DNA of 64,000 nucleotides from an uncultured archaeon (GCA_964486045.1 CAZALK010000001.1:160001-224000); one strand, 5' to 3'; counted from the first letter of the stretch, positions 11,473 through 63,029 are shown. The notes: generated by a model not told the origin, from the sequence alone. Made by a program: numbers and translations.

Positions 11473-11526
11473 TTAGTCTCCGATTATAATATATCCTATA
11501 AACGCTAATAAGGTAAATATTGCCAT
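11473..11526 (-). CDS. putative 17-aa hydrophobic peptide MAIFTLLAFIGYIIIGD
   Basis: ATG preceded by GGAGGTT SD and by the T-run/TATA element at 11574-11591; not in ORF track. Confidence 0.55.
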   Translation of the reverse strand: MAIFTLLAFIGYIIIGD

Positions 11527-11573
11527 TTTTAACCTCCAAAATTAATTTGATTATTACATTGAATTTTGGTAAA

Positions 11574-11591
11574 TATATATAAAGAAAAAAA
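11574..11591 (-). promoter_or_regulatory. T-run/TATA promoter element (peptide ORF)
   Basis: TTTTTTTCTTTATATATA on minus strand. Confidence 0.65.
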
Positions 11592-11635
11592 TGGAAAAAA
11601 TTGGATTTTAAAAATCTAGATGTAAATTTATAGAT

Positions 11636-12229
11636 ATGATTGTTGATCACGTCGATAAAACAATTAGTATAAAAATTGTATATTTTGGACCGGCTCTTTC
11701 TGGTAAGACAACTTCAATAAAAACTTTATTTTCTCTTTTTGGTAAGGAGGAGGAAATATGTAGTATTGAAAGTACAGTAAATAGAACTTTATTCTTTGAT
11801 TATGGTATTGTTTCCTTTCAAAATCAGGATTGGAAGATCAAAATTCATATTTATACTACAACTGGCCAGGATTTCTATATAATAACTAGGTTAATTACAT
11901 TACATGCGGTAGATGGAATCATCTTTGTATTAGACTCTCAAAAAGAAGTTTACGACCGAAATTTGGCATCTTGGAAAGAACTTCTTTCATATTTTAGTGA
12001 ATCTATTGAAACCATTCCAACTATTATAGCATTTAACAAACAAGATTTGCCTATAAAATTTAATCCTGAAACGTTCTTGCATAACATTAATTTTGGGAAA
12101 TATAAAAACATTGATACAATATATACCAGTGCAAAACTAGGAGAAGGTATTTTGGACTGTTTTGAAAATATTTTGCAATTAATTTTAAAAAAATACTATA
12201 AAAACAAAATAGTTAATGTATTAAATTAA
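11636..12229 (+). CDS. MglA-like small GTPase
   Basis: KIVYFGPALSGKTT, RTLFFD, TTGQ, DGIIFVLDS, NKQD. Confidence 0.88.
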   Translation: MIVDHVDKTISIKIVYFGPALSGKTTSIKTLFSLFGKEEEICSIESTVNRTLFFDYGIVSFQNQDWKIKIHIYTTTGQDFYIITRLITLHAVDGIIFVLDSQKEVYDRNLASWKELLSYFSESIETIPTIIAFNKQDLPIKFNPETFLHNINFGKYKNIDTIYTSAKLGEGILDCFENILQLILKKYYKNKIVNVLN

Positions 12230-12265
12230 AAAAGAAAAAGAGATATCTTATTTTTTCTTCCTTGT

Positions 12266-59916: not shown

Positions 59917-59937
59917 TCTCTACCCAATGTAATTTTA

Positions 59938-61845
59938 ATGTTATCAAAACAAGTTTACTCTGAAAAAACAGTTGCCTTAGAGGATTTATTTCCCAATTTT
60001 ACCCATGAATTCTTAGAACCGTTTAAGGAGATAGTAGGGGATAAGATTAAACTTGATCTTCATCTCGATTTTCAGATCAAAGGCAGAAAACATGCCCATA
60101 AAATAAATCCTATTTTGCGATTAGCAAGACCGGAAGATGCAGAAAAAATTATTGAGATTTACAAAGAATTGTATGATGGCACATATCCTTACAAGGAGAT
60201 GGAGGATGTTCATGAAGTTCGAAAAATGATTGAAGATCCGAAAGTCCAATGGATAATTTATCAAGATCCTTCTGAAAATATCGCCGGATGTATTACCTTT
60301 GTTTTAGATTTTGAAAATAAACGAGGATATATCAGAGGCTTCATGCTGCGCAAAAAATATCAAGGTCATATTGATATAACTAAGGCAATGATAAGTTCGA
60401 TGCTTGGCATGCTCCATAAATATAAAAACGTAATTTATGTGTGGTATGTAGAAAATAGAACTGCTCACGCGAAATCTCAGTATTCTATGTATGTGTGCGG
60501 TATTTCTCCTATCGGATTCTATCCAAACAAGGATATCTTTTGTGGAGAAGTGGAATCGGACATCATGCAAATACTCTATGATGAAAAAGCATTAACATCT
60601 TTGCGTAGTAGGGAGATCCCTCAGTTAATACCTCAGGTTGAGCCTTGTTTTCAATTTTCGTGTGAAAGATATGGTTTAGAGTCACTTGTTATCAAGGATT
60701 CAAAGATGTCTTTGGATAGGAAGCTGGTTAAGGCTCTTAAGAAATCAATTTATGGAGATGTTTCGAAGGATTCATTTGGATACGAAACCTTTACTTTTAG
60801 ATTCCACGGTTCTGATTCTTTCTTCCAATTTTTATATACCCCTCAAGTGAAGAACTTTGAAAAAGTAAAATATAAAGTTGAGAGCCGGGAAGAACTACAT
60901 GTTTTTGCTAAAGAGTTTTTAAAATGCAAAAAAGAGTTAAGTGTAAGATATTGTGAAGTATTTGTCTCAGCTTACAATCGAGATCATCAACAAATTTTCT
61001 GGGATGTAGGATTTAAGCCTCGGGGATATATACCAAGCTGGGAATATTCCAACACAGAATCCATGTTTAAAGATTCAATATTGTTTAGTATATTCGACGG
61101 CAAGATTAGTGGTGACATCCAATTAATAGACCAAGGCTATAAATTAATAGAAATGTTAGGGATGGCAACAATCTCAAGTGCCGGTGAGACTATACCTCAA
61201 CGTAAAAAGAATGTTACGAAAGTCGTGAGTAGTGTTCTAAGCTCAAAAAAGGTTATGAAAAACTCCTTGCGAACTTCTATGGCAATGTATCTTGTTTTGC
61301 TAGCAATTAGTCTTTTAGTAGCAATAATTTTTGGCGATGTGGGGTTTAACTTAACAAAACACACCATCAGTGATCTTGGTAATTCACTTTTTACCCCAGC
61401 GCCCTTCTTATTTGATACTGCTTGCGGGTTGGCAGGAGCGGTGACGGTTCCCAATAGTTATTATATCTATAATATTGTAAAAAAAGAAAACTCAATAAAG
61501 GGATTTATTACACGAATAGGGTTACTATCTGGAATAATCGGTGGGGTAGGATATATTTGTGTAGGTGTTTTCAGTTTAGAACGATCAGGTCCGAATGGGA
61601 TCATTCATGGCATAAGTGCAATTATCGCTTTTACAGGGTTTGTCTTTTCTATATTATTTTTCAGTATTCCCGCTCTTCTACAAAAAAATATTGCCTATAA
61701 AATATTTGGTATTAGCGGAATTATAACTCCATCATTACTACTTCTACTCAACGGAATACTTGCTACACCTCTTCTAGAATGGTTGTTGTTATTCTCAATT
61801 CTTTTTCATATTGTTCCTCTAAATTACCGCTCTGTCTCTACTTGA
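59938..61845 (+). CDS. tandem GNAT-fold protein fused to a DUF998-like membrane domain
   Basis: LRLARPEDA, KYQG, GFKPRGYIP; HTISDLG, GVF, HG..A..F in a 5-TM tail. Confidence 0.7.
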   Translation: MLSKQVYSEKTVALEDLFPNFTHEFLEPFKEIVGDKIKLDLHLDFQIKGRKHAHKINPILRLARPEDAEKIIEIYKELYDGTYPYKEMEDVHEVRKMIEDPKVQWIIYQDPSENIAGCITFVLDFENKRGYIRGFMLRKKYQGHIDITKAMISSMLGMLHKYKNVIYVWYVENRTAHAKSQYSMYVCGISPIGFYPNKDIFCGEVESDIMQILYDEKALTSLRSREIPQLIPQVEPCFQFSCERYGLESLVIKDSKMSLDRKLVKALKKSIYGDVSKDSFGYETFTFRFHGSDSFFQFLYTPQVKNFEKVKYKVESREELHVFAKEFLKCKKELSVRYCEVFVSAYNRDHQQIFWDVGFKPRGYIPSWEYSNTESMFKDSILFSIFDGKISGDIQLIDQGYKLIEMLGMATISSAGETIPQRKKNVTKVVSSVLSSKKVMKNSLRTSMAMYLVLLAISLLVAIIFGDVGFNLTKHTISDLGNSLFTPAPFLFDTACGLAGAVTVPNSYYIYNIVKKENSIKGFITRIGLLSGIIGGVGYICVGVFSLERSGPNGIIHGISAIIAFTGFVFSILFFSIPALLQKNIAYKIFGISGIITPSLLLLLNGILATPLLEWLLLFSILFHIVPLNYRSVST

Positions 61846-61874
61846 ATTCTAATATTATTTCCTTTTCTTTTCAA

Positions 61875-61890
61875 TTTTTTTCTTTATATA
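61875..61890 (+). promoter_or_regulatory. T-run/TATA promoter element
   Basis: TTTTTTTCTTTATATA. Confidence 0.65.
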
Positions 61891-61934
61891 GAATTACAGA
61901 ATTAGAATTTAACCTTTAAAATGGTGATAAAATT

Positions 61935-63029
61935 ATATTACAAGTAGAACAAACGTTAGTTGAGCAAAAACAACTAGAAATAGATGTAATTGAAAAATCA
62001 ACAGAAATTCTTAAGTATCTTCACATTGGAATAAGTTTACCCATCCTTCCTGAGTTTCATAAGTATATCCTAAACGATTTAGAAGCTTATAATGCAAAGG
62101 CTTTGGTTTTAAGGGAACATATGAACACTACTAAATTCAGAAAGATGACTGAGGATATTGTAGGAATTACCCTTGTATATGAAGATGGAAGTGATACTTT
62201 ATTTTTCGGGTTTTTTGGGGTTTACGATCATAATTCGGAGAATGTTGAATATTTAGCCGATGAGTTGATTGAATATGCGCGAAAGAATGGATATCATAAG
62301 ATTCGCGGTCCGATAAACGTTCCTACCGTAATCTATGGATGGGGTTTTATGGCAGAAGGGAGTTGTAAAGAGCCTTTTGTCGGTTGTCCATGGAATCCAC
62401 CAATCTATCAAAGAATTTTCGCTGAGAAAGGATTTGATGTGCTTTTCGAGGAAGACAGGTATAAGATGGTTGCATTAAAAATGAATCCCTACAAGCTGAA
62501 GCATAGAGACGGATCGTTTTATGACTTTTCTGACTATGAAATTGTAAATCCTGGTCCTGAAGGAATGTATGAATGTAAGGAAGATTTCATTCGTCTGCAT
62601 AAAGATTATATGCCTCTGTCAGCCAAAATTACCCCTAAAATCGAAAATAACTTTAAGAATTTAGTAGATTTCATATTTTTCTACGGGCATCATGATATGA
62701 TGTGGATGGTCTATCACAAACCTACAGACGAAGCTATTGCCTGCGGATATGTCATTCCAAATCCGTTCTCAAAAAGTAAGAAAAGAAAATGGGTGGGACA
62801 ATGGAACTCTCTAAGCTTTCACGATTGGGTTGTCCATCCGGATCATAGGAGATCGGGAATTGCTATGCTTATGTATGGTCATACTTCCCTTCAGCTGATG
62901 TCTCCAAAAGGATCTGCTGAGTGGGGAAGCTTTCCGGTCGGAGCTGATAATATCGCGAATGCAAAAATGGCCCAAAAAATGCTCGGGAAAAAGAATAGAA
63001 CACACCTAATACTGCAACTTGAATTTTAA
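61935..63029 (+). CDS. GNAT-fold N-acyltransferase; probable ATA/ATT start (track start 62103)
   Basis: FGFF, IRGPIN, PWNPP.Y, VHPDHRRSGIA; frame open back to a GGTGA SD at 61923. Confidence 0.78.
   Translation: MLQVEQTLVEQKQLEIDVIEKSTEILKYLHIGISLPILPEFHKYILNDLEAYNAKALVLREHMNTTKFRKMTEDIVGITLVYEDGSDTLFFGFFGVYDHNSENVEYLADELIEYARKNGYHKIRGPINVPTVIYGWGFMAEGSCKEPFVGCPWNPPIYQRIFAEKGFDVLFEEDRYKMVALKMNPYKLKHRDGSFYDFSDYEIVNPGPEGMYECKEDFIRLHKDYMPLSAKITPKIENNFKNLVDFIFFYGHHDMMWMVYHKPTDEAIACGYVIPNPFSKSKKRKWVGQWNSLSFHDWVVHPDHRRSGIAMLMYGHTSLQLMSPKGSAEWGSFPVGADNIANAKMAQKMLGKKNRTHLILQLEF

Follow-up and report, generated by a model that had tools for sequence, protein, structure and literature searches.

A candidate TFB regulon with a T-run promoter in a chromosomal gene island of an Asgard archaeon

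Which factor reads a rare promoter element that is shared by recombination and membrane-protein genes of an Asgard archaeon, and what might these genes do together? The question arises from a 64,000-nt stretch of DNA from an uncultured archaeon (hereafter the window, C1:160001-224000 of a 5.18-Mb genome in 45 contigs with a G+C content of ~32%), in which a run of T residues ending in C directly precedes the TATA box of many genes and in which a divergent paralog of transcription factor B (TFB) is encoded among them. A first-pass annotation had taken this region for a competence or DNA-exchange regulon under the control of an alternative TFB. The locus is read here as a chromosomal island that works as one dedicated TFB regulon for DNA exchange or recombination, and we assign this reading a probability of about one half. 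The closest named public relative of the TFB-like gene belongs to a metagenome-assembled genome (MAG) of Promethearchaeota (Loki-type Asgard archaea), DNA of the window's genome was seen in marine-sediment metagenomes, and a literature search found no published description of the island or of its promoter. Positions are those of the window unless a contig (C1, C9 and so on) is named, and related genomes are numbered (G016 and so on) where they have to be told apart.

Promoter element and extent of the island

Reading the regions upstream of all open reading frames (ORFs) revealed a shared element, TTTTTTCTTTATATA, in which the T-run and C (TTTTTTC) occupy the position of the B recognition element (BRE) and the TATA box (TTTAWATA) follows immediately. 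Variants include TTTTTTCTTTAAATA and copies with the C replaced by G, A or T. The exact motif occurs ten times in the genome, and five of these copies fall inside the window, which makes up 1.2% of the genome; with at most one mismatch there are 81 copies, 16 of them within C1:171576-224344. Words in which the C is shifted or replaced are present in 0-6 copies each, except for an AAATA variant with 14. A position weight matrix (PWM) scan gave 129 intergenic sites with scores of at least 15, of which 19 lie within 50 kb of the window, and sites were densest in the window (19), on contig C33 (10 within 16 kb) and in the bins C16:100-125 kb and C1:250-275 kb. Such a site is located at most 125 nt upstream of 14 of the 41 genes (34%) in C1:175-222 kb and of 41 of the 4475 genes (0.9%) elsewhere (odds ratio 56, Fisher p 7e-18; the matrix was trained partly on the island sites themselves, and the exact-word count is free of such training). 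These results bear out the earlier claim that one rare, non-canonical promoter is shared by a coherent gene set, and they show that the motif is not equally common before other genes of the genome.

The spacing between the end of the motif and the start codon is bimodal, at 20-30 nt and 40-60 nt; for the shared element it measures 21-26 nt, the leaderless class, or 45-58 nt. The base 22 nt past the motif end is A in 77% of sites, as expected if the transcription start site (TSS) coincides with the ATG. Since an archaeal TATA box is centred ~26 nt upstream of the TSS, this spacing implies that many of the mRNAs would be leaderless. Compact divergent promoters, with motifs paired back to back, are found at 25536/25559, 26412/26447 and 59879/59902. 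Upstream regions of this genome are in general purine- and A-rich on the coding strand. Outside the T-run class, the bases before consensus TATA boxes are almost unbiased, and no generic purine-rich BRE consensus could be derived; the T-run therefore marks an outlier class and not the generic promoter.

Among the genes that the first-pass annotation had placed behind the motif, radA, the radB-like operon, hef, the M50 gene, the small membrane-protein genes, the helix-hairpin-helix (HhH) operon and the 17-codon ORF do carry it (Table 1). The fen site is weak, and the Hel308-like gene bears the motif only with its start moved to the ATG at 50022; in the window as well as in DZ3M.28 and G002, the site then lies 24 nt before the corrected ATG, and other relatives have a different leader. 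The gene for the 889-aa surface protein, which had also been listed, has no good site in the window. The labels 'roadblock' and 'Whirly-like' were not confirmed by sequence, and searches against the Protein Data Bank (PDB) returned nothing significant for the 184-aa 'roadblock' candidate or for the 212-aa protein.

The motif-bearing genes make up a conserved island of ~46 kb (window ~15.5-61.9 kb), with its left edge marked by the gene at 15679..16317 and its right edge by the exact motif copy at 61876-61890. The proposed check on synteny and upstream motifs across relatives came out in favour of the prediction: tblastn searches of the neighbourhoods of the TFB-like gene showed that the gene order from 15679/17532 through 59938 is kept in ten congeneric genomes and in the named MAG. 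In relatives, the motif (PWM score of at least 14) heads the same operons and stands before none of the operon-internal genes. A block of window-specific genes (27939..35253) is missing from the TFB neighbourhoods of these eleven genomes; its genes lack the motif (PWM scores below 6) and have no orthologs in the relatives' island loci examined, save for a weak radical-SAM match (28% identity) in G024. The RadA paralog sits within this span yet belongs to the system.

The gene for a 1263-aa protein, which serves as an island marker, is present in 54 of the 68 genomes of the window's family and in three of the seven of a sister family, and it is sporadic elsewhere in the phylum; this corresponds to ~80% of the family and ~90% of the genus as sampled. 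A diverged island was found in G038, a closed genome of a different family, with identities of 64% for RadA, 34% for Hel308, 37% for FEN, 24% for the TFB-like protein and 22% for the 1263-aa protein, and there sites of the TTTTTTTTGCTTTTATAAAC type lie ~22 nt before the ATG of the orthologous genes.

The surroundings of the island were compared in three relatives (G016, G003 and G024), in which it adjoins a block with Ldh_2 and cation-efflux genes; the same block is contiguous and free of the island on C9 of the present genome. The island of G016 (C1:269000-320700 of that genome) lies between two full-length Ldh_2 paralogs, and the present genome has one Ldh_2 and no island at C9:151-166 kb. 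Because the flanking paralogs in G016 are only 71% identical, the arrangement points to an old duplication or rearrangement and not to a recent site-specific integration, and the island has been lost from the syntenic C9 site or relocated by rearrangement. Ldh_2 was also considered as an integrase or att site beside the island in these three relatives and was ruled out, being a metabolic gene represented by two old paralogs.

Members of the T-run promoter class are also found away from the island. Contig C33 (15.9 kb) carries a second dense patch, with ten sites before LRR, WD40 (643 aa), TPR, ERCC4-nuclease (238 aa) and uncharacterised genes, and it does not adjoin the island in relatives. 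A multi-OB-fold RPA gene (574 aa, C1:610057-611781) has the T10 variant TTTTTTTTTTATATA 44 nt upstream, and this single-stranded DNA-binding protein may belong to the same promoter class.

The divergent TFB and its relation to the element

The first-pass annotation had recognised a divergent TFB in the region, and the 412-aa protein proved to be genuine, with a Zn ribbon, two cyclin repeats and the TFB fold. Its Pfam TFIIB repeat scores below threshold (18-20.5 bits against a cut-off of 23.6, E 0.003), and its PDB sequence matches are weak, but they are to TFIIB exclusively. An AlphaFold2 (AF2) model of the core (residues 100-310), built from a 20-sequence alignment, has pLDDT values of 85-92, and a Foldseek search with it returned TFIIB, TFB and Brf through rank 42, with only cyclins lower. 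Superimposition of the model onto P. woesei TFBc in its complex with BRE and TATA DNA (1d3u_B) gave a TMt of 0.79 and an r.m.s.d. of 2.8 over 199 columns. In an hhalign comparison with a canonical TFB of the same genome, the match (94% probability, E 8.7e-8) spans the protein from the Zn ribbon to the C-terminal helix-turn-helix. The ribbon cysteines C18, C21, C35 and C38 are invariant in 20 orthologs, in a region that aligns to the canonical ribbon. A profile of the family matched only 633 representatives at E 1e-3 (375 at 1e-10 and 155 at 1e-30) among 1.84 billion proteins, which means that canonical TFBs are not retrieved by it, and public records label its members 'hypothetical protein'. 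The paralog is thus a distant member of the TFB/TFIIB family by fold and profile, below the curated sequence model.

The recognition helix of the C-terminal helix-turn-helix, the part that reads the BRE in TFB/TFIIB proteins, is altered: the canonical GVTEATIRNRYKE aligns with IKMSTIQFQVKK in the paralog (TIRNRYKE to TIQFQVKK), and S274 and T275 are invariant. The genome additionally encodes eight canonical TFBs and three genes with a TATA-binding protein (TBP) domain. Searches located the TFB-like gene in 17 of the 24 genomes of the genus, and the matches numbered 0-6 per genome. The mean number of TTTTTTCTTTAWATA sites per genome rises from ~7 in genomes in which the gene was not found, through ~10 in those with a single copy, to ~17 in those with at least two, compared with 1-7 per genome for a reversed-pattern control; as the genomes are related and unequal in size and completeness, this comparison is a trend and not a test. 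Outside the genus, 0-3 sites occur per genome searched, save for G035 with seven, and the motif sites concentrate on the contigs that bear the TFB-like gene. The TFB-like gene itself is motif-headed in none of ten relatives (PWM score of at least 14) and has no T-run promoter of its own.

Adjacency, co-occurrence and the altered recognition helix together argue that the island TFB is probably the factor that reads the T-run, and the island is likely to be a dedicated TFB regulon. The paralog, encoded mid-island and made from an ordinary promoter, would replace a general TFB at ~15-19 island promoters, each presenting TTTTTTC in the BRE position directly before TTTAWATA, and transcription would in most cases begin at the ATG or immediately ahead of it. 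The island genes would be expressed together.

A partial second island was observed at C16:106808-113000. Besides another TFB-like gene, 74% identical, and a third copy that is truncated, it contains relatives of the M50-like gene and of the genes at 26767, 25620 and 26169, and motif sites.

Recombination paralogs, membrane proteins and known systems

For each 'repair' gene of the island, a further copy is found outside the island in the same genome, and as judged from sequence the island radA, fen, hef and hel308 are additional paralogs, not the housekeeping copies. The island RadA has an N-terminal HhH domain, a Rad51 match (Pfam, 1.4e-69), a Walker A motif (GPFKSGKT) and the core motifs. 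When aligned with the other two RadA copies in this genome, it shows an Arg to Ile replacement in L1, a 5-residue insertion and an acidic linker that leads to an extra C-terminal HhH (HHH_5 at 349-398). Across 41 related genomes, those two genes are present in nearly all members of the genus searched and are 43-45% and ~41% identical to the island RadA; the RadA/Rad51 family comparison put its identity to the two universal copies at 39-43%. Orthologs of the island RadA (76-81% identity) were found only in island-bearing genomes, about 15 of the 24 of the genus, with 50-64% identity in other families. Two RadA clades have been noted before in some Asgard lineages, though without the island context (PMC12722695). 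A second FEN gene, 34% identical to that of the island, is located at C1:384174. The Hef-type helicase lacks a nuclease domain (Pfam DEAD, Helicase_C, RNA_helicase_helical) and has paralogs at C1:351837 and C12:120169. In the Hel308-type paralog, a Cys/His-rich insertion (CQFDIDMGIQCSCGF ... FCDHITAF) that resembles a SWIM-type zinc finger is located between the helicase core and domain 4.

The 1263-aa protein of the five-gene operon has four predicted transmembrane (TM) segments at its N-terminus and language-model (Atlas) features of DUF87, HerA_C and TrwB_AAD_bind. The AF2 model of its domain 560-1010 (pTM 0.68) matches HerA in Foldseek (E 3.5e-11), and VIA-align places DndH-C, VirB4, HerA and TrwB in a tie at Z 21-23; PDB sequence searches gave nothing significant with the sequence alone, and the best profile match, to a HerA, had an E of 0.36. 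On this modelling the protein has a HerA/VirB4/TrwB DNA-translocase fold, so that the anticipated likeness of the membrane proteins to DNA-transfer folds was recovered for this protein, with the loss of its Walker A motif (see below) telling the other way. The HhH membrane protein carries an (HhH)2 domain that is closest to the N-terminal domain of RadA/Rad51 (E 3.7e-5); because it has a TM hairpin near the C-terminus and no predicted signal peptide, its DNA-binding domain should face the cytoplasm. The 72-aa protein, a 2-TM hairpin with a basic loop that is 61-70% identical across the genus, has TrbC, T4SS_pilin, DUF4134, Maff2 and DUF2976 (conjugative pilin-type) as its nearest named Atlas clusters and no PDB sequence match. 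Considered as possible channels of the VirB6/CedA type, the 4-TM and 3-4-TM proteins of the island gave no family or feature match, and an Atlas search with the 4-TM protein matched only unnamed archaeal clusters.

A second gene of the 1263-aa type, with 40% identity, lies at C14:47257-51102; a TAG stop interrupts its reading frame at codon 645, and this copy is probably a pseudogene. A two-gene module, in which a gene for an M50-like membrane protein is followed by one for a HerA/DUF87-type ATPase of 650-680 aa whose Walker A motif (GxSGxGKS) is intact, is present in 5-8 copies in the genome (C1:704950-707778, C28:25329-28161, C41:2280-5113, C1:260822-263700, C16:104719-109712 and C14:43154-45223, with further sites at C12:36043-37950 and C1:504966-506975). 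Several copies of this module are headed by the T-run/TATA motif, and none was found in the stretches of the relatives' islands examined.

Under the proposed mechanism, the regulon would have two outputs. One would be a specialised second recombination set consisting of the RadA paralog with its extra HhH, the RadB/KaiC-like ATPase and the FEN1, Hef-helicase and Hel308 paralogs; the other would comprise the cytoplasm-facing HhH membrane protein, the polytopic proteins, the small 2-TM proteins and the catalytically dead protein of the HerA/VirB4/TrwB fold. The island might then move or tether DNA at the membrane, in import or in cell-to-cell exchange, and subsequently recombine it, analogous to the TFB3-controlled Ups/Ced response. 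A function in DNA exchange is plausible on the grounds of fold-level resemblance and gene association, and we regard it as a tentative assignment. Equally speculative is the fuller proposal of a switchable lokiarchaeial programme, driven by the TFB paralog, in which a membrane apparatus resembling type IV secretion systems (T4SS) or Ced and a dedicated recombinase set exchange chromosomal DNA between cells. For the uptake or transfer programme envisaged by the first-pass annotation, the gene set, the TFB and one translocase fold could be retained; the recombination genes turned out to be extra paralogs, and the HhH domain is predicted to be cytoplasmic, unlike that of ComEA.

By analogy, two known systems come closest: the TFB3/Ups/Ced response of Sulfolobales and, in Thermoproteales, the Ted locus (PMC9905601). 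The TFB3-dependent DNA-damage response of Sulfolobales includes Ups pili, the Ced DNA importer and a HerA-NurA operon (PMC9905601, PMC11868833). It shares with the island a TFB paralog tied to membrane components of the DNA-transfer type and to homologous recombination, together with a protein of the HerA/VirB4-type fold whose N-terminal part bears predicted TM segments, and small proteins with two TM segments. In contrast to TFB3, a truncated co-activator without a DNA-binding cyclin core, the island TFB is full length with a rewritten recognition helix, and its putative targets share a distinct BRE-position element and lie in one island. The HerA/VirB4-fold protein of the island, unlike its Sulfolobales counterpart, lacks Walker A, and neither Ups-like type IV pilus genes nor a CedA/VirB6-like channel were recognised. 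The two systems also differ in lineage, Asgard as opposed to Thermoproteota. The Ted system of Thermoproteales, in which TedA/B/C stand beside HerA, Rad50 and ParA (PMC9905601), is likewise a chromosomal, T4SS-derived-looking membrane module with recombination genes and no relaxase; however, there is no detectable sequence relation, the island ATPase is inactive, the pilin assignment in the island is a weak lead, and a dedicated TFB with its own promoter class has not been described for Ted.

Full-length TFB paralogs direct promoter subsets in the manner of sigma factors in the multiple-TFB regulons of haloarchaea and in Sulfolobus acidocaldarius, where TFB2 is a cell-cycle paralog (bioRxiv 10.64898/2026.09.06.749720). 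These proteins score as canonical TFBs and have no sharply distinct BRE, whereas the island family is too divergent to retrieve canonical TFBs and its putative targets cluster around the TFB gene. Streptococcal ComX (SigX) is similar by analogy only, as an alternative initiation factor with a short promoter box under which membrane DNA handling and recombination are co-induced; the machineries themselves are unrelated, the window's CoiA-like gene has no motif and falls outside the conserved island, and neither ComEC nor a ComEA of the right topology was found. If the island TFB truly reads the T-run, the locus would offer a clean natural case of a TFIIB-family protein that selects promoters in the manner of a sigma factor, in which the change can be recognised in the helix as well as in the BRE. 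The putative regulon sets a second recombinase set (RadA, Hel308, Hef and FEN1 paralogs) beside membrane proteins of a DNA-translocase fold in Asgard archaea, the presumed ancestral group of the eukaryotes, and this has implications for how specialised (meiosis-like) recombination and the exchange of genomes might have originated before eukaryotes.

Competing explanations and further features of the window

Several observations weigh against a dedicated DNA-exchange regulon. Walker A is lost in all eight orthologs of the 1263-aa protein (LLIVNGxxxxRE in seven of the eight, with G038, of family f2, also without GK[ST]); as every ortholog has lost it, the protein is a conserved pseudo-ATPase that cannot itself power translocation. 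The pilin likeness of the 72-aa protein lies at Atlas values of 0.78-0.82, under the reliable range of 0.9, and serves as a lead only, and no VirB6/CedA-like channel or relaxase was recognised among the island proteins. The CoiA-like gene (14321-15211) and the RNase_H_2/DEDD-type exonuclease gene (16436-17377), both counted in the programme by the first-pass annotation, have no motif and are not in the relatives' island stretches examined; these two genes, which had carried much of the competence analogy, do not belong to the conserved island. The chromosomal position of the island varies between genomes, and, outside the island, the motif also heads unrelated genes such as those for sulfatase, AhpC, CheC/CheW and ferredoxin. 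Finally, genomes in which the TFB-like gene was not found still lie somewhat above the control for the motif (mean ~7 against ~3.6), and some other factor might bind the T-run.

The last two points lead to the question of whether the T-run/TATA combination is a real promoter class that is read by the general TFB and TBP or by a separate regulator, with the island TFB otherwise employed as a TFB3-like co-activator or a decoy. The eight canonical TFBs and three TBP-domain genes would provide such readers, and the low-level persistence of the motif where the TFB-like gene was not found and its presence before unrelated genes outside the island fit this possibility. We nevertheless consider it improbable, because the paralog, unlike TFB3, retains the Zn ribbon and both cyclin repeats, its recognition helix is specifically rewritten and conserved, it is embedded among motif promoters in every genome examined, and motif counts scale with its copy number. 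Accepting a dedicated regulon, its purpose could be the response to DNA damage or replication stress without intercellular transfer, in which the island enzymes would serve back-up recombination and fork repair and the membrane complex would tether the chromosome or broken ends or have an unrelated role in the envelope. All of the recognisable enzymes are repair or recombination paralogs, the RPA gene and the ERCC4 nuclease elsewhere carry motif variants, and the catalytically dead HerA-fold protein and the cytoplasmic HhH domain are in keeping with a repair role. Such a regulon would not readily account for the many conserved membrane and surface proteins (the products of the five-gene operon, the 889-aa and 635-aa proteins and the pair of small TM proteins), which have no obvious intracellular repair role, nor for a further set of enzymes where housekeeping RadA, FEN, Hef and Hel308 copies are already present, and we judge it unlikely.

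A mobile or domesticated element, similar to a conjugative plasmid or a virus, could also bring its own initiation factor, promoters and recombination-dependent replication, as in phage T4 with gp55, UvsX, RNase H and helicases. The separate transcription factor and promoter class, the patchy presence (0-6 TFB-like matches per genome), the partial second island (C16:106-113 kb), the broken second 1263-aa gene on C14, the variable chromosomal context and the HerA/VirB4/TrwB folds typical of conjugation machinery are all compatible with this origin. The TFB, M50-like and membrane proteins are moreover fast-evolving, with 30-50% identity between genomes against 50-82% for flanking host proteins; the island RadA, Hel308, GTPase and FEN fall within the host range, and RadA, Hel308 and the GTPase thus diverge at the rate of host genes. 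Against an element of this kind, no integrase, relaxase, replication initiator or virion gene, including capsid and terminase genes, was recognised by Pfam among 55 ORFs, and no att-like direct repeats besides the promoter motif were found across the window, in agreement, as to integrase, relaxase and att sites, with the first-pass annotation. A PHROGs search with ten island proteins gave one match, of unknown function. With no flanking direct repeats, the old 71%-identical Ldh_2 paralogs as flanks in G016 and the marker in most of the family and genus, a mobile element appears quite unlikely. Still less credible is an antiviral defence island of helicases, nucleases and a HerA-like protein. 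The Hel308-like helicase matches Hachiman HamB models (1e-44) and HerA-type proteins occur in several defence systems; PADLOC, however, gave generic SF2-helicase and HerA similarities only, the cognate partners (HamA, Sir2 and DUF4297) are missing, no defence model matches the membrane proteins, the M50-like protein or the TFB, and RadA, FEN and RadB-like proteins are not defence components.

Table 1 Features of the window, with the position of the promoter motif and the number of relatives in which the gene or operon is headed by it.
Feature	Position	Strand	Motif	Relatives with motif	Remarks
RadA paralog, 407 aa	33399..34622	-	34665-34679	7/8	
Operon: M50-like membrane protein (36929-37678), 105-aa single-TM protein (36576-36893), RadB/KaiC-like ATPase (35861-36583)	35861..37678	-	two copies, 37700-37714 and 37782-37796	8/8 (M50-like gene)	M50-like: HEISH within a TM helix, Pfam Peptidase_M50B E 6.5e-4; ATPase: Walker A intact, weak Pfam KaiC/AAA matches
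Zn-finger protein, 126 aa	35437..35817	-	35839-35853, 21 nt before ATG	6/6	
FEN1/XPG-family nuclease paralog	22437..23531	-	weak variant TTTTTTATTTTTATA, 23556-23570, score 14.3	2/3	Pfam XPG_I 8e-22
Operon: 203-aa protein (43365-43976), Hef-type SF2 helicase (44071-46137), DUF1922 Zn-ribbon protein (46141-46659)	43365..46659	+	43327-43341, 23 nt before ATG	8/9	
Hel308-type helicase paralog with Cys/His insertion	47482..50022	-	variant TTTTTCCTTTAAATT, 50049-50063, score 13.2		Pfam DEAD, Helicase_dom4_arc
Five-gene operon: HhH membrane protein (52045-54183), 4-TM protein (54185-54844), 2-TM protein (54841-55704), 1263-aa protein (55701-59492), 119-aa protein (59489-59848)	52045..59848	+	52003-52017	4/4	genes abutting or overlapping
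Small membrane protein, 122 aa, 3-4 TM	25620-25988	+	25559-25573 (+)	6/7	convergent with the 72-aa gene
Small membrane protein, 72 aa, 2-TM hairpin, basic loop	26169-26387	-	26412-26426 (-)	7/7	convergent with the 122-aa gene
Operon: 105-aa Zn-ribbon protein and 352-aa protein with N- and C-terminal TM segments	26508..27825	+	26447-26461, back to back with 26412-26426	6/6	
Operon: 184-aa protein (19851-20405), Arf/MglA-like small GTPase (19168-19812), 504-aa protein with C-terminal NYN RNase domain (17532-19046)	17532..20405	-	20421-20435	3/3	Pfam; orthologs 74-82% identical
193-aa uncharacterised protein	21785..22366	-	22418-22432		
Zn-ribbon protein, 104 aa	25193..25507	-	variant, 25536-25550, back to back with 25559-25573	1/5	
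212-aa protein of a multi-copy family	15679..16317	+	15572-15586		
Surface protein, 889 aa, membrane-anchored, alpha/alpha-toroid (prenyltransferase-like) domain	40638..43307	+	no good site (score 9.5)	3/8	Pfam, TM prediction; syntenic in relatives
Two small soluble proteins, 83 and 91 aa	46673..47467	-	motif-like site just before 46924	7/9 (83-aa gene)	
GNAT + DUF998 polytopic membrane protein, 635 aa	59938..61845	+	59902-59916, 21 nt before ATG	6/7	Pfam
Exact motif, then GGAGGT and 17-codon hydrophobic ORF MAIFTLLAFIGYIIIGD (11473-11526)	11473..11590	-	exact, 11576-11590		from sequence; outside the conserved island
Exact motif copy	61876..61890	+	exact, 61876-61890		no ORF at promoter distance; next gene 231 nt away
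Divergent TFB paralog, 412 aa	38175..39413	+			Zn ribbon, two cyclin repeats, rewritten C-terminal recognition helix, ~100-aa C-terminal extension
Window-specific inserts, outside the system: PAS histidine kinase, B12-radical SAM, PIN/MazE pair, RibD_C, glyoxalase	27939..35253	.			Pfam

Some further features of the window were recorded. An opposite-facing motif at 59879-59893 (-), back to back with the promoter of the 59938 gene, points into the 3' end of the five-gene operon, an arrangement that recurs in five or more relatives; the copy might act as an antisense promoter or drive a small ORF of 49 codons. One of the inserts inside the island is a toxin-antitoxin pair of the PIN/MazE type (31470-32146, -). 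The N- and C-terminal halves of an MFS transporter (20443-21746, -) lie on two overlapping ORFs, so that the gene looks frameshifted or split, with a motif variant at 21759-21773. A family of 80-aa proteins is represented at 39533-39775 (-) and 51589-51816 (+) and has at least eight copies genome-wide (C19, C9, C4, C5 and C30) with 39-60% identity.

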